From: a virus
Taxonomy: Duplodnaviria > Caudoviricetes
IMG/VR virus record: IMGVR_UViG_2850738089_000001
Coordinates: 5,265-69,264 of that record
Reading direction: 5' to 3' (one strand)
Length of the DNA stretch: 64,000 nt
The position numbers were made by a program, and so were the translations under genes. A model generated the notes under the pieces. It worked only from the letters and a program-made list of their open reading frames with translations. It had not been told where the DNA came from and ran no database searches. Position 1 is the first letter of the stretch. The number at the start of each line of letters is the position of its first letter. Below, one piece after another: positions 43,306 to 63,064 of this stretch.

Positions 43306-43310
43306 ACGAG

Positions 43311-43348: not shown

Positions 43349-43379
43349 GAGTGGGATGAGGATGTCTCTTACTGATCGA

Positions 43380-43391
43380 GAACGTATGTTC
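43380..43391. promoter_or_regulatory. LexA (Cheo/SOS) box
   Basis: GAAC-GTAT-GTTC matches Gram-positive GAAC-N4-GTTC. Confidence 0.75.
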
Positions 43392-43437
43392 TAAATAATC
43401 GCATGGAAAGCCTTCACGCTGCGGTGAAAGCGCAAGT

Positions 43438-43899
43438 TTAGAAGGATATGAATGATTGCTCGTCCCACCAAAAACCTTTTCTTGCAGGAGGGGTTTTAAG
43501 GTGGGCAACTTCTAGCGGAACGCCGCAAATCGCTGATGCTGAATCGAGTGTGTGCTCGAGTAATAATTCATCAGGTATCAGCAATTCGGCTGCAAATTGA
43601 TTAGCCTCGCGCTCGATGCGATCAACACTTACAAGCGTATGCTGTCGAAGGAAAGGTGTATTTACTTTTGGATGCAGCATGGCGTGTCCAAGCTCATGCG
43701 CGCATGTGAATCGCTGTTTTGCATCGTCGAGTCCGTCATTTACATGGATGAAACGACTACGTTTATATGAATTGTAATAGCCATAGATATCCGCTAGGTA
43801 TTCGTTAATAACAATGATGTTTAGTCTGGATGCAAGGTCAAAGGGATCACTTGTACCGTATTTACGAACAAGCTTTCTGACCGTCTGTTTAATACGCAT
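43438..43899 (-). CDS. immA: ImmA/IrrE family metallopeptidase (anti-repressor)
   Basis: FTCAHELGH, EREANQFAAELL. Confidence 0.92.
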   Translation of the reverse strand: MRIKQTVRKLVRKYGTSDPFDLASRLNIIVINEYLADIYGYYNSYKRSRFIHVNDGLDDAKQRFTCAHELGHAMLHPKVNTPFLRQHTLVSVDRIEREANQFAAELLIPDELLLEHTLDSASAICGVPLEVAHLKTPPARKGFWWDEQSFISF

Positions 43900-43917
43900 C
43901 CGATACCCCCACGATGT

Positions 43918-44427
43918 TTATTTTTTATATTTGTTTGGCGTGTACTTTTGTTTTGCAAACTGCTTTGCTAGTTTCATGGAGCTCTCTAGAGAAATACGGA
44001 GGGCTTCTTTTGTTTCTTCATTGATTGGCTCACCATGAAAGGCGAGCGCTTCGTTTGAGTCGAGATCAGACATAATACGCTCCAAATCAAGTGCGATATC
44101 CCGTTCTTCTTTTTTGGATAAAGCGTTTTGTAAATTGTTATCCATATCATCCAAAATACTTTCATCTGTATTTCCATCAGTATCGTGGTCATTATTTAAA
44201 AGTAAGTGATCTGAATGATGGGGCAGACCAAGTAGGATCTCTAATGTTACATCAAATATCTTTGCAAGCTGCAATGCTTTATCGGCACTTAGATTTTTCT
44301 TTCCTCGCTCGATATCGTAATAGTACTGTGGAGAGATCCCTAGTTTTGTAGCAACTTCCACTCCGCTCATCTTCCTCATTTTTCTTGTACCTCTAATACG
44401 ATAGGCTTGCGAATCCAATTTGAACAA
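43918..44427 (-). CDS. immR: XRE-family repressor (ImmR-like)
   Basis: N-terminal HTH VATKLGISPQYYYDIERG; C-terminal KYTPNKY; adjacent to immA. Confidence 0.88.
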   Translation of the reverse strand: MFKLDSQAYRIRGTRKMRKMSGVEVATKLGISPQYYYDIERGKKNLSADKALQLAKIFDVTLEILLGLPHHSDHLLLNNDHDTDGNTDESILDDMDNNLQNALSKKEERDIALDLERIMSDLDSNEALAFHGEPINEETKEALRISLESSMKLAKQFAKQKYTPNKYKK

Positions 44428-44531
44428 CTCCTAACGATTAATGTTGATGATAATATATCATCTAATGGCTTAAAAAACAATAATCAATTCACGCCATTCA
44501 AGAGCGATTTTAAGCTATAAAGCGCATTTCG

Positions 44532-44622
44532 GTTAAACTATTAGATTAATGCTTGTTAATGCTTCTATTTTAATCAAATTGATTAAATATGACATTTGTT
44601 ATAGTTAAACTAATAGATTAAT
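44532..44622. promoter_or_regulatory. Repressor operators TTAA-N9-TTAA in divergent switch region
   Basis: GTTAAACTATTAGATTAAT (44532), palindrome TTAATCAAATTGATTAA (44570), GTTAAACTAATAGATTAAT (44604). Confidence 0.65.
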
Positions 44623-44646
44623 ATTTTAACAGGAGGTGACAGTTCA

Positions 44647-44850
44647 ATGAGCTTCTCAAAAATGGTCCAAGGAGCTTTGGCTAACAGAGTAATGATCCCT
44701 TCAGAAGTGGCCAGACATAAAGGTTATTCACCACAATATATCCAGTATCTAATTAAAATTGCTCGCACTTCCACTCAAGTCAGTTGGGGCAGCATACTCG
44801 TTCATTTATTCGTTCATTTATTCGTTCAGTTTCATCTCACATTTAAATAG
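44647..44850 (+). CDS. Cro-like HTH protein, C-terminus probably degenerate
   Basis: SEVARHKGYSPQYIQYLIK; AGGAGGTG RBS; 12-bp tandem repeat near 3' end. Confidence 0.6.
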   Translation: MSFSKMVQGALANRVMIPSEVARHKGYSPQYIQYLIKIARTSTQVSWGSILVHLFVHLFVQFHLTFK

Positions 44851-44862
44851 GAGGTTTCATCA

Positions 44863-45174
44863 ATGTCTGTTCAAATTCAAATTAACGGAGAAAACGCTGC
44901 AGAAGCAGCCAAAGAGCTAATCATCCTTGCTTCTTATTTCACAGGTAGTTTGGCTCCTAATTTTGCTCCTTCATCTGGAGAAGCTGCTTTTAAGGATGAT
45001 CGGATTCCAACGGTTGAGGAACTTCGGGCGAAAGCTACTGAGATTGTTAAGGCTGGTCATCAAGCTGAGGTTAAGTCACTAATGAATGGTTTTACTGTTA
45101 GCGCGATTCCAGAAGATCAAAGAGCTGGTTTCCTAGCTGCGCTTGAGAACTTGGGTGGCTGTCCACGGGGATGA
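44863..45174 (+). CDS. Phage protein of the type that usually precedes DUF2800/DUF2815
   Basis: PTVEELRAKA...EVKSL...VSAIPEDQ. Confidence 0.6.
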   Translation: MSVQIQINGENAAEAAKELIILASYFTGSLAPNFAPSSGEAAFKDDRIPTVEELRAKATEIVKAGHQAEVKSLMNGFTVSAIPEDQRAGFLAALENLGGCPRG

Positions 45175-45274
45175 ATGCAGTCTGAATGTTGGTACTCAAA
45201 ACTGATGTTTGAACAACCATTCGATGAACATTTGCTGCAAGTTGAAGTGCACCACGAAAGGAGGAGTGGGCCGC

Positions 45275-47716
45275 ATGCATGAGATCGATCTAGCCATTTC
45301 CTTTGGTCAAAACCGCAGTGAAACGAACTGGAAAAATGAATATCTCAGCTGGAGTGAATTGGTCGATCGACTGCGGGTCGTGCGGCGTACTGCAGAGACG
45401 ATGGCCGAATACGACGAGCTTTCGGTCGCTGATAAAGGTAAAGTCAAGGACGGCCCCGCTTTTGTTGGCGGTCTTGTCCAGGACGGTCGCCGGAAGAAAG
45501 AGAATGTCGACTCTCGCAGCCTAATTACATTAGATGCCGACCATGCAGACGAAAATTTCTTGTTTATGGTGGATCTGGTTCTCGGGGGAAACGCACATAT
45601 CATCTATACCACTCATAGTCATCGAAATGACAAGCCGAAATATCGAATTGTAGCGCCTTCCAATCGGGAGATGTCACCGGACGAATACGCAGCTGCTTCC
45701 AGGAAGCTTGCTGCTAATATTGGTATGGATTATATCGACAAGACTACGTTTGATATTCATCGGCTGATGTACCTGCCAAGTTGTTCAGCTGACGCTAAGC
45801 CACAATTCATAGAGGTAGAGGGTGATCCGGTCAATATTGAGACTGTCTTAGGAGAATATGAGGATTGGAGAGATCGATCGCAATGGGCACAGCATTCAGG
45901 AGAAAAGGTGCAATGGTTTACTGCTGAGAAAATCAACGGGCTGAGTGCAAAGTACGGCGTTAACGGCTCGAAGATGACTGATCCAGTGGAAGAGTACGGC
46001 GTTAACGGCTCGAAGATGGCCGATCCAAGAGCAAAGCACGGTGTAATCGGCGCTTTTTGCCGGCAGTACAGCATAAGCGAAGCAATCGCAACCTTTCTAT
46101 TTGACGAGTATGAGCCGACGACCTACAAGGATAGATACACATTTACGGGTTCTTCTTCTTTTGACGGGCTTGTCGTATACGACAATGATACATTCGCTTA
46201 TAGCCATCATGAGTCTGACCCAATAAGTGGGATCGGGGTGAATGCATTTGATCTCGTGCGACTGCACAAGTTTAAAGATCTCGATGACAACATTCCAGAC
46301 AGCATGAATATGACAGAGCTGCCGTCTTACTTGGCCATGATTGATTTTGGAAGGCGAGATCCAGCGGTAATGCGGGAAATGGCTGAGGGAGAAATCAGCG
46401 ATGACATCATGAATAAGGATTTTGATTGGATGGACAAGCTGCTGCGAAACAAGAAAGATCTCAATATCGTTCTACCCAATGCCTCTAATATAGAGCTGAT
46501 TTTAACAAATGGTGCGTTTGACGGTGTGCTTGCTTACGATGCATTCAAGAATTCAGAGGTTATTCGTGGATCACTGCCATGGCGGCAGCGTGAGCGGGCT
46601 CAGTTGGAATATGAACCATGGCTAGGAGCGGATGATCGTCGTTTGCAGCATTATTTTGCCAAGACCTATAATATTAAGTCTTCGGAAACGATTAAAAATG
46701 CACTTACTGAAGTCATCCATCATAACAGCTTTCATCCAGTTAAAGCTTATCTGGAGGAACAGCGATGGGATGGCTGTGCACGATTGGAGATGATTTTTAT
46801 AGAATACTTAGGTGCAGAAGATACGCCATACGTTAGAGCGGTAACACGAAAGATGTTCGTCGCTGCAATAAAGCGTATCTATGAGCCGGGTTGTAAATTT
46901 GACAATATGCTTGTCCTCGTTGGGCCGCAGGGTGCAGGTAAGAGCAGCTTGCTCGCCAAGATGGGAAGGCAATGGTTCTCAGATTCTCTCAAGACATTTG
47001 ATAGTAAGGAGGCGGGAGAACATCTACAAGGGGCATGGATTATTGAGGTTGGGGAGTTAGCTGCGATGAAGAAAGCCGAGGTAGAGGAGATCAAACAGTT
47101 TCTGTCTAAGCAGAGTGATCGTTACCGTGTAGCCTATGATCGTATGGTAACAGACTTCCCGCGTAAGTGTGTGTTCTTTGGGACTACCAATAATAGCAGC
47201 TTCCTTCAAGATACAACGGGTAATCGAAGGTTCTGGCCTGTCGTCGTTGATCCGAATAAACGCTGTAAGAATCATTTTAATGAACTCACAGATGAAGGAG
47301 TTAGCAAGTTATGGGCCGAGGCATTGCAGCTTTATTTGAGCGGAGAACCGTTAGAGCTAGATGCAGGTGTATATGCAGATGCTCAAAAGGTGCAGGAGAG
47401 GCATATGGACAGCGATCCTAGAGAGGGCTTGATCATGGAGTACCTGGAGACGGATCTTCCAGAGAAATGGGATGAGATGGACGAATATGAGCGGCGGGAG
47501 TATTTGAAAACACCAACGGGTGTAATCAAAAGAAGCCGAGTCTGTGCTGCGGAGATATGGGTAGAGTGTTTGGGTTCACCACTTAAACTGTTAAAGCCTT
47601 GGGAAGCCAAATCGATTTGTGATATTATCCGAAGAATCCCTAGCTGGAGAGAACGTAACCCGGATAAGACACGATTTAAAATATATGGGCAGCAGAAAAC
47701 TTTTGAGAGGGTGTAA
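45275..47716 (+). CDS. Primase-helicase, VapE family (paralog of 7450-9819)
   Basis: LDAD, TTHSH, GPQGAGKS, IIEVGEL, DTTGNRRFWP; uninterrupted; ATG after AGGAGG. Confidence 0.92.
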   Translation: MHEIDLAISFGQNRSETNWKNEYLSWSELVDRLRVVRRTAETMAEYDELSVADKGKVKDGPAFVGGLVQDGRRKKENVDSRSLITLDADHADENFLFMVDLVLGGNAHIIYTTHSHRNDKPKYRIVAPSNREMSPDEYAAASRKLAANIGMDYIDKTTFDIHRLMYLPSCSADAKPQFIEVEGDPVNIETVLGEYEDWRDRSQWAQHSGEKVQWFTAEKINGLSAKYGVNGSKMTDPVEEYGVNGSKMADPRAKHGVIGAFCRQYSISEAIATFLFDEYEPTTYKDRYTFTGSSSFDGLVVYDNDTFAYSHHESDPISGIGVNAFDLVRLHKFKDLDDNIPDSMNMTELPSYLAMIDFGRRDPAVMREMAEGEISDDIMNKDFDWMDKLLRNKKDLNIVLPNASNIELILTNGAFDGVLAYDAFKNSEVIRGSLPWRQRERAQLEYEPWLGADDRRLQHYFAKTYNIKSSETIKNALTEVIHHNSFHPVKAYLEEQRWDGCARLEMIFIEYLGAEDTPYVRAVTRKMFVAAIKRIYEPGCKFDNMLVLVGPQGAGKSSLLAKMGRQWFSDSLKTFDSKEAGEHLQGAWIIEVGELAAMKKAEVEEIKQFLSKQSDRYRVAYDRMVTDFPRKCVFFGTTNNSSFLQDTTGNRRFWPVVVDPNKRCKNHFNELTDEGVSKLWAEALQLYLSGEPLELDAGVYADAQKVQERHMDSDPREGLIMEYLETDLPEKWDEMDEYERREYLKTPTGVIKRSRVCAAEIWVECLGSPLKLLKPWEAKSICDIIRRIPSWRERNPDKTRFKIYGQQKTFERV

Positions 47717-47922
47717 CTGTGAATGCGATAAACGATTACAGTTACGGTTACACCTTGAAGGCCAGTATGGTAGGCTGTTCAACTCATCCGTGTCCTGTGT
47801 AACTGTTTCTATTATAAATAAAGAAAAAGAACTACTTTACATAGAGTCTACACACAAGCAGCTAATTAATCCCATTAGAGGTCATTATTCTGAACCGCAC
47901 ATGTAACAGATACACAGTTACA
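47712..47922. repeat. Putative origin with TGTAAC/GTTACA iterons
   Basis: Copies at 47712, 47741 (variant), 47747, 47798, 47902, 47917 flanking an AT-rich core. Confidence 0.65.
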
Positions 47923-48026
47923 CATGATCTTGCGAGTCCGTAGAGCTAATCCCACAATAGAAAGGTGAAAATTATATGAATCCTGCTAAACATGAAGCAC
48001 GTGTAGAAACGAAAGAGGGCCAAGAG

Positions 48027-48647
48027 ATGAACGAACAAGATGTCATTCATCAGCTAACCAGCTACAAACGGATCATTGCGCGAATAAAGCTTCTCGAGAA
48101 TTATTCCATTGGCAATGGGATAACTGTGAGTCGATTAAATCAAGACGATCACCTCCAAGAGCTTCACCGCAAACTTAAAGGAATGCCTTCCTATATGTAT
48201 CTGAGTAAGCGAGAACAGCGTTTGGAGACTACGGCTCATGCCTATTTGACGCAATACCCGGCCGGAGTCAAAGCTCAACTGGCAGCTATTCCTCACCATG
48301 CCGATGATCAAGAAGATGAGAAGCTGTTACGTGAATTAAGACAGAAGGTTGAGAAGGTTGTAGAAGCTAGAACAGGAGATAAAGATAACTTCAATGCTGT
48401 TATTGAACGGATCAGTGAGCTGCAGGATTTAGAGCGAAAAAGGGAATATTATGAATATGCATTTGAGGTGCTGGACGGGTATAAATCGGGCTATGGTAGA
48501 ATGCTTCAGAAAGAATATGGGGAGGGAGCGAAGCCAGCAGATATTATTCAAGAGTTCGGGTATACATTAACAACCTATTATCGTCATCGGCGTGCTGCGT
48601 TAGCTGAATACTGCCTGCTCACTAGAGGACTTGGGATCGATAAGTGA
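48027..48647 (+). CDS. Late-gene transcriptional activator (intact paralog); ORF can extend to 47976
   Basis: Collinear with 11989-12601; divergent C-terminal HTH. Confidence 0.8.
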   Translation: MNEQDVIHQLTSYKRIIARIKLLENYSIGNGITVSRLNQDDHLQELHRKLKGMPSYMYLSKREQRLETTAHAYLTQYPAGVKAQLAAIPHHADDQEDEKLLRELRQKVEKVVEARTGDKDNFNAVIERISELQDLERKREYYEYAFEVLDGYKSGYGRMLQKEYGEGAKPADIIQEFGYTLTTYYRHRRAALAEYCLLTRGLGIDK

Positions 48648-48730
48648 TAAATAAATGATAAAAAGACGGTAATAAATTGATAGCAAAAAGGTTAACAAAT
48701 CCCTGTTTTTATGTGCTATTATGTTAGTAT
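48645..48730 (+). promoter_or_regulatory. Late promoter: TGATAA-type repeats at 11-bp period plus TGcTATTAT
   Basis: Repeats at 48645, 48656, 48667, 48678; TATTATGTTAGTAT at 48717. Confidence 0.7.
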
Positions 48731-48763
48731 AGCAATAATAAATAAGAGCCGAAAACGCTTAGT

Positions 48764-48791
48764 AAAGCCGTCCATTGTTGGGCGGCTTTTT
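48764..48791 (+). terminator. Leader terminator/attenuator
   Basis: AAAGCCGTCCA-ttgt-TGGGCGGCTTTTT. Confidence 0.75.
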
Positions 48792-48856
48792 GTATGTGCT
48801 TTGGGGATTTTCAACGTTTGCATAAGAGCTAAAGAGTTTTAATAAAACATCGTTCG

Positions 48857-48888
48857 AGCACTCTCAACTTAAGAGAGTGCTTTTTTTT
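48857..48888 (+). terminator. Terminator homologous to 18567
   Basis: AGCACTCTC...GAGAGTGC-T8. Confidence 0.75.
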
Positions 48889-48890
48889 GC

Positions 48891-48970
48891 GGGCCGCGGC
48901 TGAGACTGCCGGGGCCCTTATTAACTCTTTTGACGGAGCATGACGGCTAACTTAGGCGCAGTTATTGCCA
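48891..48970 (+). ncRNA. Retained copy of scaffold-leader structured RNA
   Basis: GGGCCGCGGC-TGAGACT-GCCGGGGCCC and downstream GGAGCAT.ACGGC. Confidence 0.55.
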
Positions 48971-49057
48971 TGAAGAGGAAGGGAGAGTGTGCGAGCATGA
49001 AACTGCATGTAGGGCAGTAAACACTAACCACATGGAAGTATAGGGTGGTGATGAGCA

Positions 49058-49144
49058 TTGGCAAGCACAGTAGATATCAGGAGAGAGCTGCCAGCAATAA
49101 TGAATCGCAGGCTGCAGCAATTTCTTGACCAGTACATGAGGTGA
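49058..49144 (+). pseudogene. Relic of HK97 gp10-like gene 3' end
   Basis: RELPAIMNRRLQQFLDQYMR* versus RELPDIIERKLQQFIDRHMG* at the end of 21760-22161. Confidence 0.75.
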
Positions 49145-49148
49145 CAAA

Positions 49149-49565
49149 ATGGAAGAGATACGCAGTGCAATCGTGAATAAGCTGTCACTTTCGTTTCCGG
49201 ATTATCCGGTTTTCGACGAACAAGTGACAGAGGGGTCTCAGGTACCGTACTTTATGGTTGTTGAGACTAGCAATGGACAGAAAAAGGCTGGTAATCGACG
49301 TGTGATTCGTTCATCGACCTTTAATGTTCATTTCTTCCCAGGGCTATTAAATCCGAGATCTGAGTGTCGGATCATGAACGAATGGTGTTACGAGCATCTA
49401 TCTAACATCAGTTTTGAGGGGAACACGTATCAGGGGCGCGATCTTCATGCCGAGATTGTTGATAAGGTGCTGCATTTCTTCATTAACTTTGACGTGCACC
49501 TGCTGCTCCCGAGAGAGCCCGTTGTTATTATGGAAAACATTGTACAGGAGGAACATATCAAATGA
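49149..49565 (+). CDS. Tail terminator (XkdJ-like)
   Basis: FNVHFFP, VLHFF; paralog of 22166. Confidence 0.75.
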   Translation: MEEIRSAIVNKLSLSFPDYPVFDEQVTEGSQVPYFMVVETSNGQKKAGNRRVIRSSTFNVHFFPGLLNPRSECRIMNEWCYEHLSNISFEGNTYQGRDLHAEIVDKVLHFFINFDVHLLLPREPVVIMENIVQEEHIK

Positions 49566-49765
49566 GCAAAAAGACAAAAGGTGAACAGACGCCTTTATCA
49601 TTAGAAACGAATGCTGACCTATTCACGAAGGAACAGGTGGTTGGCTCCAAAAGTTATGAGGCTCAGCGGGATGTTTTGACAGCTCTGCTGGATAATAACA
49701 AGCTTTATACCCATGATCAAATTACGGAAATGCTGCATGCATTTTTAAATAAGGAGGCGAAGTAA
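49562..49765 (+). CDS. Small conserved protein upstream of sheath
   Basis: Paralog of 22591. Confidence 0.7.
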   Translation: MSKKTKGEQTPLSLETNADLFTKEQVVGSKSYEAQRDVLTALLDNNKLYTHDQITEMLHAFLNKEAK

Positions 49766-49768
49766 GCG

Positions 49769-51085
49769 ATGGCAGGTGGAACCTTTACAGCACAAAACAA
49801 AGTACGTCCAGGTGTTTATATCGATATTATTAGTGAGCCGGCTTCACTAGGAGCAGTTGGAGAACGAGGTATTACTTCTTTGGCCTTATCTCTCCCATGG
49901 GGGGTCAGCGGAACGATCATTACGATTCAGGCAGGGGACGATACTAAAGCAGTGCTCGGTTACGATCTGAATGACCCGGAGATGCTGCTTATTCGTGAGG
50001 CGCTTAAACGTGCGAAGACACTGCAGCTTTATCGACTTAATACAGGCGTCAAAGCGACAGCAGCGAGTGGGAATTTGACTGCGACGGCTGTCTATGGAGG
50101 AATCCGAGGCAACGATATTCGTATCGTCATCCAGACGAATATCGATAACAGTGCGATGTTTGATGTTATTACTTATTTTGCTGGTGATATCGTACAAACC
50201 CAGACGGTTGCGAATATCGCAGGACTTGTTAGTAATGCATGGGTTGTATTTAGCGGCACAGGTACACTCGCTGTCACGGCTGGTGTGCCATTGATCGGTG
50301 GTGCGAATGGAACGATCACAAATGCCAATTATACTGCTTATTTAGCTTTGCTTGAGTTAATCGACTTTGATACTTTGGCTTACACGGGCACAGATGCTTC
50401 CTTAAAGGCAATCTACGCTGCATTTGTTCGTCGTCTACGGGAGAATGAAGGGAAGAAAGTTCAGGTTGTGATGGAGAATTACCCTTCAGCAGACTACGAA
50501 GGTGTTATTAGTATTAAGAATGGGGTCAAATTGTTTGATGGAACGGTGCTAACTGCGGCACAAGCAAGTGCTTGGGTAGCTGCAGCCACTGCAGCTGCTG
50601 GTGCTAACCAATCTCTTACTTATCAAGCCTATGATGATGCCATTGATGCAGGTACACGCTACACGAATGCTCAAATCGAAGCGGCCCTTACAGCTGGTGA
50701 GTTCCTATTCGTGCTGAACAGTGGTAAAGCGGTGATTGAGCAGGACATCAACAGCTTGACTAGCTTTACACCGCAGTATTCGAGGGTTTTTGCGAAAAAT
50801 CGCGTGATTCGAGTATTTGATGGACTAGCAAATGATATTCAACGTATTTTCCAGCAGTCCTATATCGGTAAGATATCGAACAATGCAAACGGACGCAGTT
50901 TACTTCAAGGTGAAATTATTTCTTACCTGCGAAGCATGCAGAATATGAATGCCATTCAGAATTTTGATGCGCAAACGGATGTCATTGTATCTGCTGGCGA
51001 ACAGTCGGATTCCGTATATGTTGAAGTTTTTGCACAACCGATTGATTCTATTGAGAAAATCTACATGAAAGTGAGGGTCAGCTAA
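49769..51085 (+). CDS. xkdK: Contractile tail sheath protein
   Basis: 438 aa, collinear with 22789. Confidence 0.93.
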   Translation: MAGGTFTAQNKVRPGVYIDIISEPASLGAVGERGITSLALSLPWGVSGTIITIQAGDDTKAVLGYDLNDPEMLLIREALKRAKTLQLYRLNTGVKATAASGNLTATAVYGGIRGNDIRIVIQTNIDNSAMFDVITYFAGDIVQTQTVANIAGLVSNAWVVFSGTGTLAVTAGVPLIGGANGTITNANYTAYLALLELIDFDTLAYTGTDASLKAIYAAFVRRLRENEGKKVQVVMENYPSADYEGVISIKNGVKLFDGTVLTAAQASAWVAAATAAAGANQSLTYQAYDDAIDAGTRYTNAQIEAALTAGEFLFVLNSGKAVIEQDINSLTSFTPQYSRVFAKNRVIRVFDGLANDIQRIFQQSYIGKISNNANGRSLLQGEIISYLRSMQNMNAIQNFDAQTDVIVSAGEQSDSVYVEVFAQPIDSIEKIYMKVRVS

Positions 51086-51555: not shown

Positions 51556-51579
51556 ACGATAATTAGGAGGGAAAAATAA

Positions 51580-52002: not shown

Positions 52003-52184
52003 TCAAGGAGGGCGATGGTGAGGCGAATTACGCTTACTACGCTCTCCATGAGCTTCGCATTCTGCCACATGATTTCGTGCAAATGGGCCGTTATGAAAAA
52101 GCGGCCATTTACGCCATGATTGATGTCCGAATTGAAGCCGAGAAACAAGCAAAGAAATCAAAAGGAAAATAGAAGCTATCAGTT

Positions 52185-52211
52185 AAGCGTCCTTTCACAG
52201 GGCGCTTTTTT
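52185..52211 (+). terminator. Hairpin between TAC and TMP
   Basis: AAGCGTCCT-ttcac-AGGGCGCTTTTTT. Confidence 0.6.
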
Positions 52212-52235
52212 ACATGTCTTGAAGGAGGTGGATAC

Positions 52236-54702: not shown

Positions 54703-54705
54703 ACT

Positions 54706-55683
54706 ATGTTTGAAATTATCCTCGACAATAAGAATGGTACGCTGTGGAATATCACGGAGCTGGTGACCAGCGCCACATGGCAAACGAGCAGGCTCGGAAA
54801 AGCAGGAAGCTTGGAAATCACTTTCGTCGATGATCTCTATCAGCGGAATCCTGATTTTATCTATGAGGTAGGCAATGTGATACGTGTTCGAAGAGAAAAC
54901 AAGGGTATCTTCTATGGCTATATATTTGAAGTGAATGAGGAAGCAAGTCGGGAAATTAAGCTGAAGGCATACGATCAAATTCGCTACCTGCTCAATAGTG
55001 AATCGTATGTGTTTGTTAATAAAACCGCAACAGAGATTATTAAAACGATTATCAGTGATACCCAGCTTACGCTGGATAGTTCGAATTTTGCAGACACCTT
55101 GAAGCCAATTCCCAAAATGTCTGCAGAATCTCAACAAATGCTGGATACAGTCTTCAAAGCACTTTCTGAGACCACGGCTATTTCAAAAAAGATTTATATC
55201 TTTTATGACGATTTTGGTCAGCTTAAGCTTACTCCTTTGGAGGATATGAAGCTGGATCTGATACTTGGTGATAATAGCCTCGTAACGAACTTCAGTCGAT
55301 CTTATTCGATTGACAGTGATACGTATAACTATGTGGTTATGACCCAGAAGAACGAAGAGTCAGGTGCCACCAAGAAGTACATTGCTATGGATTCGGGCAC
55401 TATTGCAAAGTGGGGAAAACTGCAGCTTAACCGTACTGCCGACGAGAAGCTGAATAAAGCCCAAATCAACGAAATTCTGGATGCAGCATTAGCCCTCAAA
55501 AATCGTCCAGTGAGTACATTGAAAATTGAGGTACTAGGCGATATTCAGGTAAGGGCAGGTTCTATGATTCAGGTTGAGATCAAGGAGATCGAGTTGAATG
55601 GGATTTTTATTGTGAAGGAATGCCAGCATAAATTCACTGGGGACGAGCATACGATGTCACTCGAGCTGGAGGGGAAACTATGA
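54706..55683 (+). CDS. xkdQ: Baseplate hub (XkdQ-like)
   Basis: AYDQIRYL, WGKLQ. Confidence 0.85.
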   Translation: MFEIILDNKNGTLWNITELVTSATWQTSRLGKAGSLEITFVDDLYQRNPDFIYEVGNVIRVRRENKGIFYGYIFEVNEEASREIKLKAYDQIRYLLNSESYVFVNKTATEIIKTIISDTQLTLDSSNFADTLKPIPKMSAESQQMLDTVFKALSETTAISKKIYIFYDDFGQLKLTPLEDMKLDLILGDNSLVTNFSRSYSIDSDTYNYVVMTQKNEESGATKKYIAMDSGTIAKWGKLQLNRTADEKLNKAQINEILDAALALKNRPVSTLKIEVLGDIQVRAGSMIQVEIKEIELNGIFIVKECQHKFTGDEHTMSLELEGKL

Positions 55684-55976
55684 GCTTAGTCGAATTAATG
55701 AAGAAAATTAGTGTTGGAGCCGTGGATGCTTCAAGTCCTGTAGCTGTGTATTTTGGGATCATAAGTGCCATACATCCTTTGGAGGTAGCCGTCAATCAGC
55801 GGTTCATTCTTCCGGAGGATTTTTTAGTTGTACCTGAAAATTTATCCGAGTTTAAGTTGAACATTGGTGGTCAGGAAACGGTTATCCGGCGCGGGCTAGA
55901 GGTTGGGGATAAAATTGTTATGCTGCGAATTAAAGGCGGAGAGCAGTATGTTATTTTGGATCGGGTGGTGGGGTGA
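55680..55976 (+). CDS. xkdR: Baseplate spike (DUF2577)
   Basis: Paralog of 30081. Confidence 0.8.
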   Translation: MSLVELMKKISVGAVDASSPVAVYFGIISAIHPLEVAVNQRFILPEDFLVVPENLSEFKLNIGGQETVIRRGLEVGDKIVMLRIKGGEQYVILDRVVG

Positions 55977-56371
55977 TGGTTCTCCCGATAGGCGGAATAT
56001 CCGCGGCATTACAGGAAGTCGTAAGTGAGCCCAGTCTGACTTATCGGTTGGATCCAACTCTCGGGCGAATCGTCGGTTTAATTGATGGCCTTGAGGCTGT
56101 GAAGCAGTCCGTTTACAAAATATTGCAAACGGAACGATTTGTTTACCCCATTTATTCGAGCAATTATGGGTGTGAGCTGATTCGAAATGATAACATTACG
56201 ATTGAGTTTGAGAGATGGATTACGGATGCATTAACCCAGGATGATCGGATTGAAGGTATATCAGACTTTGAATACACACAGTCGGGCGATACAGCTACGT
56301 TATCTTTTTCGGTTGAATCTACTTTTGGCAAATTTAATGTTTCGACAGGAGGTGGGAATACAAATGTATGA
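55973..56371 (+). CDS. xkdS: DUF2634/XkdS-like
   Basis: Paralog of 30418. Confidence 0.85.
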   Translation: MMVLPIGGISAALQEVVSEPSLTYRLDPTLGRIVGLIDGLEAVKQSVYKILQTERFVYPIYSSNYGCELIRNDNITIEFERWITDALTQDDRIEGISDFEYTQSGDTATLSFSVESTFGKFNVSTGGGNTNV

Positions 56372-57419
56372 GAGTCAAACCTATGAGCTCATTTTACATC
56401 GCATGCTGGACCGGGTACCTACAGAAGTAGACAAACGAGAAGGCAGCATTATCTATGATGCACTTGCGCCAGCGGCTCTTGAGTTGTCAATTGCTTATGC
56501 TTCGCTGGATATAAATTTAAATCTTGGATCTGGGCAGACAGCCACCGGCAGCTATTTGGATCTACGGACGATGGACTACGGAATTACACGAAGAGAAGCG
56601 ACAAAGGCTGTTCATGAGGGGATCTTCTTGAATACAGTGGGGAGTTTATTTGATATCCCTATCGGGAGTCGGTTTGCTTCTGGGAGCGTTACATTAATGG
56701 TTTCCTCTCGATTATCGTTGGGACATTTTGAGCTGACAGCAGAAATGCCTGGGTCGGAAGCCAACTTAACAACAAATACACTGCTGCCAATCGATTATAT
56801 TACCAATCTTGGTACTGCGCAGTTGGGCGGATTGCTTGTACCGGGTACGGATATCGAGTCCGATGATAAGTTACGTGAACGTTATTTGCAGACTGTACGC
56901 ACACCTTCAACGAGTGGGAATAAAGCAGATTACCGGAAATGGGCGCTAGAGGTTAACGGAATTGGGGATGCAGCTGTTCTTCCGCTCTGGAATGGTCCTG
57001 GTACGGTCAAAGTCATATTGCTGGATGCAAATAAACTGCCGGCTTCCTCAACATTGGTGGATGATGTTCAAGCCTATATCGCGCCTACGAATGCAGGAGA
57101 GGGGAAGGCACCTATCGGGGCAACGGTTAATGTTGTGTCTGCAGTTGGCATTTCTATCAACGTAACGGCAGCTCTAATCATGGACGGTACGAGAACTGCT
57201 GGAGAGATTATCAATGATTTCAAAGCCTCCCTTACCGCTTATTTGAAAAGCATAGCCTATGCCATCGACCCCTCTGTTAAGTATGTACGTGTCGGTTCCT
57301 TGCTGCTAGATACAGATGGTGTGAAAGATTATTCCGGATTGCTCGTTAATGGCGGGAGCAGTAACGTGACGGTAGCTTCTGGCTCTGTGGCTGTTCTTGG
57401 GAAGGTGAGCTTAAGCTAA
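56364..57419 (+). CDS. xkdT: Baseplate J-like protein
   Basis: MYESQT..DKREGSIIYDALAP. Confidence 0.9.
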   Translation: MYESQTYELILHRMLDRVPTEVDKREGSIIYDALAPAALELSIAYASLDINLNLGSGQTATGSYLDLRTMDYGITRREATKAVHEGIFLNTVGSLFDIPIGSRFASGSVTLMVSSRLSLGHFELTAEMPGSEANLTTNTLLPIDYITNLGTAQLGGLLVPGTDIESDDKLRERYLQTVRTPSTSGNKADYRKWALEVNGIGDAAVLPLWNGPGTVKVILLDANKLPASSTLVDDVQAYIAPTNAGEGKAPIGATVNVVSAVGISINVTAALIMDGTRTAGEIINDFKASLTAYLKSIAYAIDPSVKYVRVGSLLLDTDGVKDYSGLLVNGGSSNVTVASGSVAVLGKVSLS

Positions 57420-57997
57420 TGGGTGATTACACATTAACGTCTTTGAAGGGTCAGGATATGCTGGAGGCGCTGCCTTCTTATTACCAGACGGTAAGAGAGA
57501 GCCGATTGCTTGCACAAACAGAAGGTCTTGAGCTAGACGATTTGACAACCAAGATTGACGGCGTACTGGATCAGGCTTTTATTGAGACAGCCACATGGGG
57601 CTTAACTCGGTGGGAAACCGAATTTGGGATCACTCCACCAGCGGGACAGCCTATCGAGCAGCGTCGATCAGTGGTTCGCTCTCGTATACGGGGTACGGGA
57701 ACTGTGACCGAGGATCTGATCAAGCGTGTGGCTGAGTCTTATCTCAACGGAGAGGTAGCGGTAACTCAGCATACGAACCTTTATACCGTAACGGTGACTT
57801 TTATGAGTGAGCTCGGTATTCCGCCGAACATTGATGATATTAAACAAGCTGTACGCAGTATCCTTCCCGCACATTTGGATGTGGAATATGCTTTTTCCTA
57901 TGTTTCCTTTGGCATGTTGGAAGGTTACGGTAAATCGTTTGGAAATATTGAAGCAGCCGGATTAACATTCGGCGATTTAGAAGTATGGGGAGGTTAA
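57419..57997 (+). CDS. xkdU: DUF2313/XkdU-like
   Basis: Paralog of 31878. Confidence 0.85.
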   Translation: MGDYTLTSLKGQDMLEALPSYYQTVRESRLLAQTEGLELDDLTTKIDGVLDQAFIETATWGLTRWETEFGITPPAGQPIEQRRSVVRSRIRGTGTVTEDLIKRVAESYLNGEVAVTQHTNLYTVTVTFMSELGIPPNIDDIKQAVRSILPAHLDVEYAFSYVSFGMLEGYGKSFGNIEAAGLTFGDLEVWGG

Positions 57998-58000
57998 TGG

Positions 58001-59167
58001 ATGCAGACTCTACCTAGTGGAATAAAGAAAGTTGAAGCTTCAGATAACGCGACAGTCGCGAATTTTAATGTGAATGTGGATTTGCTAGATGCAAAGATTG
58101 CGGAGTTAAATACGCACGAAACGGCAACTACTGGGATACACGGTGCAACGTCAGCAGGCACTGCCAATAAGTTGATGATTCGTGATGCTAACGGGCGTGC
58201 AAAGGTAGCCGCGCCGAGTTCAGCTGATGACATCGCTCGTAAGGATACGGTAGATGCTTTACTCATATCTCCGGTATTTACTGGTATGCCAACCGTCCCG
58301 ACAGCAGCTGCAGATACCAATACAACACAAGTGGCATCAACGGCTTTTGTAATCGGCCAAGGTTCCAACACATTACCGGCAATGGACGGAGCGGTCACTA
58401 TTGGAACGTCCGCACGCTTTGCTAAAGCGGATCATGTCCATCCAGCAGATACTTCAAAAGCCCCACTAGCATCACCTATATTTACTGGAATTGCAACTGC
58501 GCCGTATTTCAAAGCGACTGGTGATACTACCCGAAATCTAGTCGCAGCTACTTGGGCTGATTTGTCGGCGAATACTGGAGGTCAAGCATTATTAGCTAAT
58601 AATGCTTACACTGATGGAAACAACAGTTGGAAGTATTCCAATACTCACGCATCGCTTGGCGCTCGAGGTATACGTCTATCAGTTAGTGGAGGAATTGAGA
58701 GTTTTGATACGGGGGCAGTCGCAACTACTGCAGATGCGGCTTTTACTCCTACATGGGTAAAGATGGCTTCACTACTATCACCAGCTTTTACAGGTACACC
58801 AACCGTCCCGACAGCAGCGGCAGATACTAATACGGCACAAGCGGCATCGACTGCTTTTGTAATAGGCCAAAATTATATGAAGAAGTCTGACGCTATTCCT
58901 GCAGGATCTATGAATTCAGATATATCCAATATCATGACGCTACTCAACGAAGTAGATACACGAGGTGTATTTGTAACTCGCGTTGACGGTTCGATAACAA
59001 AGATCGAAGAAAAGGACGGCTCAACCGTCGTCAGAACCACGGTACTTAATAGGGTTAACGGGTTGCTCTCTACTATAGTTCAAACGGTAGGCGGTAAGGT
59101 TATAACCTATACAATCGTAAGAGACAGCAGTAACTTAATTAAAAATCTTGCAAAATCAGTAGTCTAG
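58001..59167 (+). CDS. Tail fibre protein
   Basis: Same N-terminus as 32461; SP.FTG.PTVPTAAADTNT repeats. Confidence 0.85.
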   Translation: MQTLPSGIKKVEASDNATVANFNVNVDLLDAKIAELNTHETATTGIHGATSAGTANKLMIRDANGRAKVAAPSSADDIARKDTVDALLISPVFTGMPTVPTAAADTNTTQVASTAFVIGQGSNTLPAMDGAVTIGTSARFAKADHVHPADTSKAPLASPIFTGIATAPYFKATGDTTRNLVAATWADLSANTGGQALLANNAYTDGNNSWKYSNTHASLGARGIRLSVSGGIESFDTGAVATTADAAFTPTWVKMASLLSPAFTGTPTVPTAAADTNTAQAASTAFVIGQNYMKKSDAIPAGSMNSDISNIMTLLNEVDTRGVFVTRVDGSITKIEEKDGSTVVRTTVLNRVNGLLSTIVQTVGGKVITYTIVRDSSNLIKNLAKSVV

Positions 59168-59178
59168 GAGGTTATATT

Positions 59179-60864
59179 GTGGCTGACATGGTTTCTTTGG
59201 CTTTAATGGATGATATCCTGCGACAAACGACAGTTGTAGAAAAGTCTTACCCTCTATGGGGAGGTATGCCGCTTACTAAGGGCAATGTATCACGCGTACT
59301 GTCAGATGGCAAGGCTGCCGACCTTCCTGTCGGAGTATTCGGATCAAGGAAGGTATCTGCGCCATCAGGGCTTACATTGGCTTCTCAATCTTCCTTTGTA
59401 CTTATGAGTTCTCTGCCGGTAAACTCTACTCAAGCAATCGTTGTTTATTATGACGGTACATCTGTATACGCTTGTGTAGTAACAGAAATCAATTACGTGG
59501 TTAGTTATGGAACCGCTGTTGTAATAGCAACCACTGCATCAGGTCAAAATCCTCTGAACGGTTTTATTGATGGTAACATAGTATCGCTGGGCGGCGGTAA
59601 GTTTTTAACTTGGTATACATCCTCAGGTAACACAATGGGAGTAGTGTTAACCGTTTCAGGTTCTGCAGTGTCTGTAGGCTCTGTGTACAGTTTGGCTACC
59701 GGAGTTACTACTATGTTCTTCTCTATAGGTGTGCTGACGGTTGGATCTAAATACGTTGCTATGTACAGCGACGGATCAACCGTAAAAGCTGTTGTATTAA
59801 CAATAACAGGTACTACGATTGCGCTAGGCTCTGTTGCTACTCTTGTTACGGCTGCTGTGTACGGGTCATATATGAGCGGGTGCGGATTGAGTGCAACACT
59901 AGGGGTTGTAACGTATTCTACAGCTTCTGCAACATTCATTATAGCCTTCTCGGTATCAGGAACGACGATAACCGCAGGTACGGCGCTGAACGCGACATCG
60001 TCAGCCAATAATAACTCGCTTAGGATATTCCCTCTGTCCGCCACGACTTGCGTAGTATTCTATGGAGGCTCTAGCAACTATGCAGGAGGTTTCACTTGTT
60101 CTATAAGCGGGACAGTTGTTACTAAACTTGCAGGATTAACGCTTATGTCTCCAGGGAGCCAGGTAAACTATTTGTGGGTTATGCCTATAGACGGAATTGG
60201 AGCGTTTGCTGTGTTTACCAACTCTTCGAGCAGTTCGTACTTATAAGTATGCGTAGTAAACTGCTCGACAGATGGCACTACTGCAATCCAGTCCGCCTTA
60301 TCGAATATATTCGGTTCTTCGTCACCATCGTCTAATATGTATTCAAGTAACTTTACAGCTACTTCTGACATCGTTAACAAACGCGTCACTTTTGCTTACG
60401 CGGGCACATTGAATTCTGGACTTAGTATTGTAAAGACAGGCAGCGTTAGTTGGCTCGGCGGAATTAATTTCAACCTAGTCGATAGCGGCACAGTTCAAAA
60501 TCTACCGATCAGCGCAACAATTAATATAACCCCAGCAAGCTCGGTTTTCCTATCGGCAGACAAGGTTTTGTGCTTATTCTTAGGAACAATAGGAGGGGTT
60601 GCACAAAGCGCGGTAGTACTGCTAACGCCTGAAACTGCTCTGAGTTACGCCGGAGCCGCTTATGATATGGCGGTAGGGATAGCCACTGGAGATGCTAAGG
60701 TAGCCCTAAAAGGTATTGTAACAATAGCTGCCGGAGGGCTTATGGCGGGGGCACAGTATTACTACGACTCCAATGGCGTTATCACCCTAGTAGCTACAGG
60801 TAACACATCTCTAGGCAAAGCGGTATCAACAACAGAAATAGTCTTGAAAGACTATATATTCTAA
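59179..60864 (+). pseudogene. Putative receptor-binding protein interrupted by one in-frame TAA (60244-60246)
   Basis: ORFs 59179-60246 and 60337-60864 share a frame, with 30 open codons between; same S/T/G/V-rich repeats. Confidence 0.7.
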
Positions 60865-60869
60865 TTAAT

Positions 60870-61166
60870 GAGGAGTTGTTAACAAAGTACATTGCGGGTG
60901 TAGTTGTATTAATAGGAGAGCAAGCAGAAGAGGTTGAGTGAGGTATCTACGTAGGCGACTGCCTATACTCAGAACCTAACTTAACTATCCACGACGTATC
61001 CAATATAGAGGGTATATAACCCCTCAAATTCTGCTACAAACCATAGCAAGGATTCTCTCAAAATCTTAACTACCTTCCATCTGATTCAGACAAAGTAGTA
61101 AGTCTGAGAAAAGAGCTCGAAGCTGTTCAAGAAGCCGTTATTGCTATAATGGATCTCTTGATGTAG
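60870..61166 (+). pseudogene. Degraded fibre-assembly/XkdW-like gene
   Basis: Frame reads ..IEGI*PLKFCYKP*QGFSQN..LRKELEAVQEAVIAIMDLLM*; precedes XkdX-like peptide. Confidence 0.5.
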
Positions 61167-61195
61167 CTAACAAGCTAATGAAGGGAGGTGATACA

Positions 61196-61321
61196 ATGTA
61201 CGCATTCATTCTTAGCATGTGGGTGGCAAAAAAGATCATAGAAGGAAAAGTAAGAAGCTATTCACCTAAATTCATTTCACCAGAAGAAGCTGATTTGGTT
61301 CTAGCAACGCCGCAACTATAA
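61196..61321 (+). CDS. 41-aa XkdX-like small protein
   Basis: GGGAGGTG RBS; MYAFILSMW...FISPEEADLVLATPQL. Confidence 0.65.
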   Translation: MYAFILSMWVAKKIIEGKVRSYSPKFISPEEADLVLATPQL

Positions 61322-61480
61322 GATAACCTGCTGAGCTGATTAATAGTTTCATATTCGACACGGTAGACTTCGCATAGGCGGGGCTATTTTTAATTTCTGC
61401 AGGTTTAATACGAAGATTCTTATATACAGAATGAAGCCTCGCCTAGTGCGAGGCTTTTCCTTTTGGAGAGGGGGGATCAA

Positions 61481-61774
61481 GTGGCTGAGATGCAGATATT
61501 GAATGATATTGCTGTGAAAGTAGGGAAGCTCGAAGCGCTCCAAGAGACAAATGCTAAAGCCATTAGTGATTTGACTTCGAGCGTCAATAGACTTGTAGAT
61601 CGGTTGGGGCAATCAGATGACCTTGCTCGAGAAGCAGATCAACGAGCGCGATCTGCTCATCATCGACTTGATAAGATAGATAAAATCATTTTCTGGTGTG
61701 GATCAACTGTAATCGGTGGAATTATTGTAACCATTGTTGCTTATGGCATGAAGGGCGGATTTACTACGCCTTAA
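61481..61774 (+). CDS. xhlA: XhlA/haemolysin-like membrane lysis protein
   Basis: Coiled coil, ARSAHHRLD, C-terminal TM helix. Confidence 0.7.
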   Translation: MAEMQILNDIAVKVGKLEALQETNAKAISDLTSSVNRLVDRLGQSDDLAREADQRARSAHHRLDKIDKIIFWCGSTVIGGIIVTIVAYGMKGGFTTP

Positions 61775-61793
61775 GAAGAGAGGATGATAGTTC

Positions 61794-62069
61794 ATGGAAT
61801 GGAATGTGATTTCGCAATTGCTCGATCCAAAGTTAGCAATTGTTCTAGCAGTTTGTTGGGTGCTTGGATTTATCTTGAAACAAACTCCAAAGGTACCGAA
61901 TTGGAGCATTGTTTATATTGTCACAGTCTTCGCTATAGTCTTTGCTGTGTGGATTATGGGAATTAGTGCCTTATCATTCTTGCAAGGCTTCTTATGCGGA
62001 GCTGTGAGCGTGTACGGCTATCAGATGGTAAAGCAAGCTAAAGAAGGAGCTGAAAAGAATGCAAACTAA
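61794..62069 (+). CDS. Holin (three TM helices)
   Basis: VLGFILKQTPKVPNW, LQGFLCGA.SVYGYQ; directly before endolysin. Confidence 0.8.
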   Translation: MEWNVISQLLDPKLAIVLAVCWVLGFILKQTPKVPNWSIVYIVTVFAIVFAVWIMGISALSFLQGFLCGAVSVYGYQMVKQAKEGAEKNAN

Positions 62070-62979
62070 AAGCCCTAGTAATTTGAAGGTTATCGACGTA
62101 TCCCACCATCAAGGCTCTATCAACTGGCCCAAGGTTAAGTCAGACGGCGTTGATGGTGCCTTTATCAAGGCGACAGAAGGGAAAACGGGTATTGATTCCA
62201 AGTTCTCATCCAACGCTACAGGAGCCATCCTAGCGGGGCTGAAAGTAGGGTATTACCACTATGCACATCCAGAGAATAACCCTGCTGAGGTTGAAGCAGC
62301 TAACTTTGTAAACAAGGCTAATGGCTTCGCAGCCGACTTTCCGCATGTACTGGATGTTGAAGGGAAAGCGGACAGTCTAGGAGCCGTGAAGTTGACAGCT
62401 TGGTGTGTAGCGTGGTTGAAGGAAGTGGAACGCCTTACAGGGCATTCTGTGATGATTTATACGGGGGCGAGCTTCGCTAGATCATACTTAGGCAAGGAAT
62501 TGAGCAAGTGGCCTCTTTGGATTGCTCATTACGGAGCAGCTAAGCCAATGGAAAATAACATATGGTCTGAATGGTCCGTGTTTCAATATGCGGACAATGT
62601 TAAGGTAAGTGGAATCACTGGTAGTGTCGATATGAACGTGATGGAGAAAGCTTTTTACGATAAGCACACCATTAAGCTACCGGCTCCAGAACCAACGCCA
62701 ACAGAAAACATTAAAGTCATCGTTGACGACAAGCTGACTGCCTACGGACGTATAATCAAAGGACACGTATATCTGCCGATTTGCAAACTAGGTGAGGAGT
62801 TAGGGTATGTGGTTGACTGGAATGCTAGAGCCGCAACGCCCTACATTAACGGCAAGCCAATAACGTTTTACGAAGCTATCGATGGCTTGACCTATATTGG
62901 TGTACGTGCTGTAGCCGAATTGCTTGGCGGTACTGTATCATGGAACGTAGAAGAGAAGAAGGTATTTTTCTATAAGTAA
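62059..62979 (+). CDS. Endolysin, GH25 muramidase
   Basis: 306 aa, highly similar to 39378. Confidence 0.92.
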   Translation: MQTKSPSNLKVIDVSHHQGSINWPKVKSDGVDGAFIKATEGKTGIDSKFSSNATGAILAGLKVGYYHYAHPENNPAEVEAANFVNKANGFAADFPHVLDVEGKADSLGAVKLTAWCVAWLKEVERLTGHSVMIYTGASFARSYLGKELSKWPLWIAHYGAAKPMENNIWSEWSVFQYADNVKVSGITGSVDMNVMEKAFYDKHTIKLPAPEPTPTENIKVIVDDKLTAYGRIIKGHVYLPICKLGEELGYVVDWNARAATPYINGKPITFYEAIDGLTYIGVRAVAELLGGTVSWNVEEKKVFFYK

Positions 62980-63064
62980 TACAATACCCCACTGGTTTAT
63001 TATGCTGGCGGGGTATTATATTGTTTGTCATGGAAATTAGCGTCCAATCATAATTTTAAATGAG

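Follow-up and report, generated by a model that had tools for sequence, protein, structure and literature searches.

The analysed window is a stretch of 64,000 nucleotides (nt), positions 5,265 to 69,264 of the IMG/VR virus record IMGVR_UViG_2850738089_000001 (Duplodnaviria; Caudoviricetes), which corresponds to G000:C1:1300602-1364601 of a single-contig genome of 7.26 Mb. The subject of this analysis is element 2 (E2), a set of tail, lysis, regulatory and replication genes without a head module, which lies directly to the right of a neighbouring prophage, prophage 1 (P1), between the host genes glnA and lexA. A first-pass annotation, made from the sequence alone, had described E2 as a head-less tail-and-lysis element parked beside a complete sister prophage and offered three explanations for it: a tailocin locus that amplifies itself by in-situ replication, a donor of tails to the heads of P1, or a decaying prophage.

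The gene glnA (TIGR00653, 3.6e-179) is located upstream of the window together with a gene for a MerR-type regulator (sub-threshold match to the TnrA family), and it is followed on the minus strand by genes for a tyrosine recombinase, an ImmA-like protein and a helix-turn-helix (HTH) repressor, which form the left arm of P1. The last 73 nt of glnA are repeated at 43253-43325 (plus strand; 96% identity over 73 nt to L033:12175-12247), so P1 extends from the 3' end of glnA to position 43325, about 48.7 kb, and the repeat is both the right attachment (att) site of P1 and the left border of E2. P1 also has the integrase that had not been seen in the neighbouring prophage before; it lies 4-5 kb upstream of the window. 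Repeats of the GCCCACAAAA type are present on the left and right arms of P1. The terminator used by glnA before P1 inserted, read from the sequence as a GC-rich hairpin followed by a T-run, is found at 43311-43349, and E2 begins immediately after it at 43350, in agreement with the start given in the first-pass annotation.

The right end, previously set at 63016, had to be moved. Downstream of the E2 endolysin gene come the genes of PtuB and PtuA, an open reading frame (ORF) of 60 amino acids (aa) whose DNA is 81% identical to the right arm of P1, about 1.1 kb without long ORFs, the C-terminal approximately 75 codons of a host gene and then lexA (TIGR00498, 1.7e-77). Host DNA resumes at about 66640 in window-equivalent coordinates, which gives E2 a length of about 23.3 kb. 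The host gene is truncated (66641-66856), with its first approximately 100 codons gone, and a complete version of 174-217 aa is present between glnA and lexA in five relatives; the right junction of E2 was thus deleted into host DNA. A search with blastn-short for a third att copy at the right end of E2 gave none, the best unrelated matches being 8-12 nt long with E values of 0.36 or worse.

The genes glnA and lexA share a contig in 28 of the 29 other genomes of the genus, and the gap between them is 0.7-2.6 kb in 26 of these 28, compared with 72.4 kb in the source genome. Within the genus, the space between glnA and lexA is a hot spot for insertions, in which E2 is not an ancient resident. 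In genome G024 (L115-L117) the gap is 43.8 kb and holds a prophage whose early genes are P1-like and whose structural module is different; its integrase is 58% identical to that of P1, and homologues of DUF2800, the SSB-like protein, polymerase A, VapE and SNF2 are present. The gap of 24.4 kb in genome G013 (L113 and L114) holds an insert without similarity to P1 or E2.

The left part of E2 is a regulatory region. An ImmA-type metalloprotease, the anti-repressor protease, is encoded on the minus strand at 43438-43899 (Peptidase_M78, 1.5e-21; HELGH motif; 55% identical to P1 ImmA), followed on the same strand by an ImmR/Xre-type HTH repressor at 43918-44427 (HTH_3, 1.1e-13; 44% identical to that of P1). 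The putative divergent switch region (44532-44622) contains two 19-nt operator-like direct repeats GTTAAACTAWTAGATTAAT at 44532-44550 and 44604-44622. On the plus strand, 44647-45174 contains two short early ORFs (67 aa and 103 aa), neither of which has a Pfam match; the longer one matches PHROG 18562 (unknown function) and shows 41% identity to an early ORF of P1.

A LexA box of the Cheo type, GAAC-N4-GTTC, is present at 43380-43391. In P1 the 14-mer AGAACGTATGTTCT lies 46 nt past the ImmA stop codon, directly before the ribosome-binding site and ATG of the integrase gene, and the identical 14-mer is found 47 nt past the ImmA stop codon of E2. Beyond this 14-mer, the homology between both elements fades at a degenerate integrase ribosome-binding site, and the glnA terminator follows. 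The position of the box and the point at which homology ends show that the integrase gene was deleted and its promoter left behind. The SOS box reported earlier is therefore real by position, while the number of such boxes in the window (2 against 0.81 expected) is not significant, and by comparison with P1 the box is an orphaned operator/promoter relic of the lost integrase gene, not an input to the E2 switch. The right arm of P1 also encodes (42822-43064, plus strand) an 80-aa protein that consists of the LexA DNA-binding domain only (PF01726, 4.2e-11), without the cleavage domain. Its origin as a fragment of the host lexA was rejected, as it is only 30% identical to the N-terminus of host LexA. 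Since the integrase promoter of P1 carries a LexA box, this non-cleavable mimic could hold the promoter shut.

Downstream of the early ORFs, a VapE-type primase-helicase gene is uninterrupted (45275-47716, plus strand; PF05272, 1.2e-80; the ORF is open from 45209 and 45275 is the likely start). The protein has a Walker A motif, GPQGAGKS; its N-terminal 400 aa match PHROG families annotated as DNA primase and DNA helicase, and residues 402-754 match the PDB entry 7pds (2.1e-80), which we take to be a self-loading Rep helicase of the staphylococcal island (SaPI) type that needs host polymerases only. The E2 and P1 VapE proteins are 72% identical over 814 aa. Compared with the outgroup sequences from G215 and G173, VapE of E2 shows 59-60% identity and that of P1 61%; being as near to the outgroups as its P1 counterpart, the E2 protein shows no hint of faster decay. 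In the primase-helicase linker of E2 VapE, a tandem repeat with a 42-nt unit (2.3 copies, 45944-46041) encodes a repeated 14-residue motif; P1 VapE has a gap at this place.

Immediately 3' of the VapE gene, at 47711-47927, an iteron-like cluster with an AT-rich stretch forms a putative origin. With at most one mismatch, GTGTAACTGT occurs eight times in the window against 2.78 expected (none of 100 shuffles reached eight), and five of these matches fall within 47711-47923, in agreement with the iteron cluster noted before; the five TGTAAC/GTTACA hexamers lie in 47712-47922. At the equivalent place P1 has 11 TGTCAC/GTGACA hexamers (9810-10074). The common position of the two clusters supports an origin, and the difference of a single base in the hexamer suggests separate replicon specificities. 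A 93-aa gene and SNF2 come after the VapE gene in P1 and in all six nearest VapE relatives; in E2 only the iteron region is found there. The distance from VapE to the sheath gene is 2.05 kb in E2 as against 11.5-14.2 kb in P1 and eight other genomes in which both genes share a contig, among the matches listed (the pairing used the best 150 sheath rows and left 51 matches unpaired).

A putative late regulator is encoded at 47976-48647 (plus strand). Its ORF is intact and the protein is 57-60% identical to that of P1, with a weak likeness to DUF1492 and to sigma-70 region 4. Wherever its homologues occur, in full or in head-less relatives, they are placed directly before the structural operon; identity in the head-less ones is 44-58%. 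An intact late activator had been proposed here, and the intact frame was confirmed, whereas the sigma likeness stayed below threshold: a profile search against PDB sequences gave the best sigma matches at E 0.16-0.25, the NCBIfam sigma70-ECF model scored 25 bits against a cut-off of 42.9 and only for the P1 copy, and hhalign with the sigma region-4 protein of G011 gave E 0.02 and a probability of 2.4%. Look-alikes from the Atlas serve only as leads. Two tandem units of about 80 nt, each with a TTTTTRTATGTGCT and a ATAAGAGC box and each followed by a terminator-like hairpin, are situated 3' of the regulator gene at 48703-48846.

The region between the regulator and the tail genes carries remnants of a head module. 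Two terminator-like hairpins (48764-48789 and 48856-48882, plus strand) are present, the second of which is homologous to the terminator after the MuF gene of P1, and a conserved hairpin with a TGAGACT loop follows at 48884-48925 (plus strand; covariance-model match of 52.6 bits). As a whole, the left scar at 48857-48997 is 76.6% identical in DNA to P1 18568-18701 and contains the post-MuF terminator, the TGAGACT hairpin and the first codons of the scaffold gene. A second scar, at 49064-49138 (plus strand), is what remains of a gp10-like neck gene, namely its final 25 codons (tblastn match to P1 21655-22158, residues 143-167 of 168, 52% identity, E 9.6e-5), and stops 10 nt before the start codon of the tail terminator gene. 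The two scars imply at least two deletions in the head module, one from terS to MuF and one from the scaffold to the neck gene.

In full phages the TGAGACT hairpin lies just upstream of the scaffold gene and has a 10-bp GC-rich stem and an invariant loop; the E2 copy has one G-G mismatch. In the alignment, 95% of cells are paired, four pairs show compensatory changes and the covariation score was reached by one of 500 shuffles. The hairpin may be a 5' stabiliser of the mRNA, a processing site or an operator for scaffold and capsid expression. Copies were found in the window at 18593-18634 and 48884-48925, in L070, L073, L076, L078, L079, L081, L082 and L084, and further in L085, L086, L089, L095, L096, L097 and L115. 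A requirement of the hairpin for tail expression was rejected because, besides E2, it is present in only two of 16 head-less loci (L084 and L096) compared with 12 of 20 full loci. At gathering thresholds no Rfam family was detected in the window and L034, and the TGAGACT hairpin had no Rfam match.

The contractile tail module is of the Xkd type and covers 49149-60864 on the plus strand, with all frames open and closely packed (Pfam and PHROG matches). The structural genes begin with the tail terminator (49149-49565); next come a 67-aa ORF, the sheath (49769-51085), the tube (51085-51555), an XkdN chaperone with a -1 frame extension at 51987-52142, the tape measure (52236-53927, PHROG), and genes for a LysM protein, YqbQ, DUF2577, sheath initiator, baseplate J, Mu gp48 and the fibre (58001-59167), all assigned by homology. 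The frame extension of the chaperone is 71% conserved over 52 aa with respect to P1. The lysis cassette (61463-62979, plus strand; Pfam) encodes an XhlA-like protein, a Hol44-type holin and a GH25 endolysin with a Cu_amine_oxidN1 wall-binding domain, which is 79% identical to the endolysin of P1. All tail, lysis and regulatory ORFs of E2 are open and of the same length class as their P1 homologues. ImmA/ImmR, the uninterrupted VapE, the contractile tail genes and the lysis cassette, all named in the first-pass annotation, were confirmed by Pfam and PHROG matches and open frames.

To the right of the lysis genes, the minus strand carries a Septu pair, PtuB at 63242-64000, crossing the window end (PADLOC, 8.8e-93), and PtuA at L034:1599-2864 (PADLOC, 2.1e-146). 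The pair (63242-64000 and L034:844-2864) occupies the place in the right arm where P1 has unrelated cargo (40416-43250).

P1 contains genes that are absent from E2: DUF2800, an Enc34-type SSB, polymerase A, SNF2, the 93-aa gene, terS, terL, portal, MuF, scaffold, capsid E and the gp10-like neck gene. The earlier statement that E2 lacks integrase, DUF2800/SSB/polymerase, terminase, portal, capsid and neck genes is therefore correct apart from the two short head scars, and its list was incomplete, as the SNF2 helicase and the 93-aa gene are missing too. The portal of P1 is of the SPP1 type and one of its ORFs is beta-clamp-like (weak match). The MuF head protein of P1 (16827-18473, plus strand) carries a fused ADP-ribosyltransferase exoenzyme domain (PF03496, 1.6e-29). 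A TIR-domain protein of the CAP12/Pycsar type is encoded at 6463-7302 on the minus strand (PADLOC candidate PDC-S35, 8.7e-24), and another ORF, at 4461-5333 and likewise on the minus strand, matches TIR weakly; both lie on the opposite strand within the replication module.

The description of P1 as a complete sister prophage holds insofar as P1 has the modules missing from E2 and a full tail set of its own, but the word sister is too loose. Homologous pairs of E2 and P1 proteins are 29-79% identical, from 29% for the tail terminator and 39% for the 67-aa ORF to 60-63% for sheath and tube. In the dN/dS comparison, dS was not estimable for eight of 12 genes (proportion of synonymous differences 0.62-0.87), which makes the test uninformative. 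The saturated synonymous sites and the level of protein identity indicate that E2 and P1 are old relatives and not recent sisters.

The Xkd-type sheath matches 178 of 400 genomes of the family at E <= 1e-120. Forty sheath loci with up to 20 kb upstream of each were sampled, consisting of the best-scoring ones, those of the genus and a small number from two genera whose scores were uniform. Twenty loci were full, with the P1-type portal, MuF and scaffold; 16 were head-less, with no P1-type packaging or capsid homologue; and four had no matches to the head or regulator queries near the sheath. In 10 of the 16 head-less loci ImmA/ImmR and/or the regulator lie within 2.6 kb of the sheath, which leaves no room for head genes. 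L084 and L101 have only a scaffold-like remnant beside the tail terminator, and in L099 a Calx-beta gene is inserted between the regulator and the tails. All seven head-less loci whose downstream side was checked had the genes from the tube through baseplate J. Next to five head-less loci, seven large ORFs were scanned; all were host-type, with no replication gene among them, and no VapE was found in the 16 head-less-class loci within the stretch examined.

The sheath of E2 is nearest to that of the head-less locus L068 in G011 (67% identity; support of 94 in the Shimodaira–Hasegawa-like approximate likelihood-ratio test, SH-aLRT), which encodes ImmA and ImmR together with a sigma region-4 protein, an ABC transporter and an extracytoplasmic function (ECF) sigma pair. 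In a quick-search sheath tree of 35 rows, excluding three rows that lacked an architecture label, the full/head-less state changes at least seven times, or six with strict labels, and this suggests that heads were lost independently at least six to seven times in the family. A sheath search of genome contigs returned only five distant loci from Clostridia (35-38% identity). The 23-kb record of Clostridium phage Makh22 was considered as a head-less one and rejected, as it is a partial genome in which head genes are present. Three of the four loci without query matches are preceded by a second, distant tail cluster, the fourth being L104. In these three, L102 and L103 (genus g22) and L107 (genus g29), the sheath match (about 54-55%) directly follows a distant contractile-tail cluster that runs from sheath or tube through baseplate and fibre, which looks like two tail clusters in tandem. 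Sheath match scores are uniform across 27 of 59 species of g22 and 39 of 59 of g29; this looks like a vertically kept locus.

Taking gene content, scars and relatives together, we favour, with some reserve, the reading that E2 descends from a temperate myophage of the P1 group, has lost its heads and its mobility, and is a newly derived locus of the R-type tailocin kind with VapE as a leftover, and that it probably makes tail-only killing particles. The parts that survived the deletions are those of the compact head-less loci of relatives, plus VapE with its origin and the defence pair, which argues for an inducible, tail-only particle released by lysis. By the same comparison VapE is the odd part out, and VapE and its iterons are most simply explained as a leftover, a part not yet lost. 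Two of the three options first proposed are in this respect borne out: the surviving genes match the family's head-less loci of ImmA/ImmR, regulator, tail and lysis genes, and E2 derives from a complete phage by several deletions. The tailocin locus and the decaying prophage are two views of one thing.

The ancestor would have occupied the hot spot at the 3' end of glnA and undergone separate deletions of the integrase coding sequence, of the right att site with part of the host gene, of terS to MuF and of scaffold to neck; the replication partners SNF2, polymerase A, the SSB-like protein and DUF2800 would have been lost as well. E2 would then be one deletion short of the compact ImmA-ImmR-regulator-tail form of its relatives. 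Judged by homology, DNA damage would lead ImmA to cleave ImmR, the rightward early operon with the two small ORFs, VapE and the regulator would be turned on, and the regulator would in turn switch on the tail and lysis genes. Head-less contractile tails would assemble, XhlA, holin and endolysin would lyse the producer, and the tails would act on related strains. By the rule of thumb of roughly 1.5 angstrom per tape-measure residue, the tails of E2 would be about 85 nm long versus about 130 nm for P1.

Several points weigh against this reading. E2 is known from the source genome only, all four tested proteins being singleton clusters at 90% identity. For its two distal tail ORFs of 355 aa and 175 aa, the library searches gave no relatives. 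Two terminator-like hairpins separate the regulator from the tail genes, no late promoter was detected, and the role of the regulator is weakly suggested by its position and its sub-threshold similarity. The homology screen used P1-type head genes, and head genes of other families could escape it in the six head-less-class loci without sheath-adjacent regulators. The open frames of E2 could merely reflect recent deletions, and the synonymous divergence from P1 is too large to show selection on E2. A functional, selected locus and a recent one that has not yet decayed may both fit the data.

This last point is the core of the closest competing explanation, according to which E2 is an inert decaying prophage whose frames have stayed open just because the deletions happened recently and which makes no useful particles. 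We regard it as a possible but unlikely account. The at least five separate losses, one of which runs into a host gene, agree with it, as do the relics without function (the integrase promoter with its box, the 25 neck codons and the mismatched scaffold-leader hairpin), the five iteron hexamers in place of the 11 in P1, and the uniqueness of the element: no sheath with more than 67% identity was found in the 29 other genomes of the genus or the 400 of the family, and the junction at 47600-49800 was found only in the source assembly, with one further sequencing run sharing 0.05 of the words and no RNA run among the matches listed. What decay explains poorly is that about 13.8 kb of tail and lysis genes (49149-62979) were spared without a stop or frameshift, that one deletion ends 10 nt short of the tail terminator start codon, and that the surviving set is the recurrent head-less architecture of relatives.

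A self-amplifying, SOS-inducible tailocin, in which selection has kept VapE and the TGTAAC iterons to fire in-situ (onion-skin) replication through host polymerases, seems improbable. The VapE gene is of full length and encodes the Walker A motif, the protein shows no excess divergence from the outgroups, its helicase part is homologous to 7pds, the iterons lie at the P1-equivalent position with a core hexamer that differs by one base, and E2 is unable to excise, so any firing would occur in situ. Beyond the intact VapE frame and the iterons, however, the first-pass proposal found no support: the case stands alone, VapE is missing from the examined stretch of all 16 other head-less-class loci, no other VapE-sheath pair on one contig is less than 11.5 kb apart among the matches listed, the conserved partner genes are gone, and the iterons are fewer than in P1. 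Self-amplification, if true, would multiply the tail and lysis genes together with the neighbouring Septu, glnA and lexA genes before lysis, and the TGTAAC iterons, as opposed to TGTCAC in P1, would keep the replicons separate. Should VapE be functional, E2 would offer a tractable system for asking whether in-situ replication raises tailocin yield.

The proposal that E2 donates tails to the heads of P1 or to tail-less capsids of other elements, giving chimeric particles, is very improbable: the two elements are adjacent with related ImmA/ImmR switches (55% and 44%), which makes co-induction plausible, their tail modules are homologous, and islands that form capsids and rely on foreign tails have been described, but the gp10-like neck gene of E2 is deleted down to 25 codons, its head-proximal terminator and 67-aa ORF are the parts least conserved with respect to P1, P1 has a complete tail of its own, and an element without integrase, att site or packaging gene would gain no transfer.

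The preferred reading makes E2 a snapshot of a temperate phage turning into a tail-only weapon, with mobility and heads gone, the scars still legible and a replication gene still aboard. Together with the 16 head-less relatives among 40 loci and the at least six to seven transitions, it suggests that head-less R-type loci with ImmA/ImmR are common in this Gram-positive family. In the literature searched (without supplements) on Paenibacillus tailocins, on tailocin primases or in-situ replication and on tail-encoding satellites, no E2-like element, no head-less tail locus that includes a primase-helicase and no satellite encoding tails was described.

E2 does not correspond to an intact prophage, as the integrase, the right att site and the packaging and head modules are missing. 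Among known systems, PBSX of Bacillus subtilis shares with E2 the Xkd-type tail (XkdN, YqbQ/XkdQ-like protein, DUF2577, sheath initiator, baseplate J and gp48) and lysis by XhlA, holin and endolysin. In PBSX, regulation runs through an Xre-type repressor, a protease resembling ImmA and a factor resembling sigma. PBSX retains genes for terminase, portal and capsid and fills its particles with host DNA; E2 has no terminase, portal or capsid gene, and its replication gene is a VapE primase-helicase. Likewise, E2 resembles the Pri-Rep replicon of SaPI and other phage-inducible chromosomal islands (PICI) in its Rep gene, whose helicase matches 7pds, and in the iterons immediately 3' of it, according to homology and repeat counts. 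Unlike these satellites it has no integrase, att site, capsid-redirecting or small-terminase gene, and its 23 kb consist mostly of tail genes.

The gene content of E2, known from genes alone, is that of R-pyocins and diffocins: a complete contractile tail set, a lysis cassette and stress-type regulators (by homology), no capsid, portal, terminase or other packaging gene, and no mobility. R-pyocins and diffocins are conserved chromosomal loci and to our knowledge carry no replication initiator or origin, whereas E2 occurs in one genome and its deletion scars are visible. According to a review, diffocins are the only widely recognised R-type tailocins of Gram-positive bacteria, and Gram-positive tailocin prophages appear to retain capsid genes (PMC10538166). 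The tailocin prophages of solvent-producing clostridia described in the same source keep a primase, a helicase, origins, an Xre-type switch, the full head module and an integration gene (PMC10538166); these Gram-positive R-type elements share with E2 the retention of replication genes and the Xre-type switch, and E2 differs in having lost the head module and the integrase. The tail-like bacteriocin of the related bacterium Brevibacillus laterosporus is reported to be encoded by a mitomycin C-inducible PBSX-like XkdK sheath locus with Xpf nearby, terminase genes and an integrase (PMC9406221). E2 has a comparable PBSX-like sheath locus without the terminase and integrase, and the sheaths of Brevibacillus phages are 51% identical to that of E2. 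The head-less loci of the family differ from E2 in having no VapE or iterons, in being directly flanked by host-type genes and, mostly, in lacking head scars; they share with it the homologous tails, the tail terminator as the first structural gene and the same order of parts, from ImmA and ImmR through the regulator to the tail.

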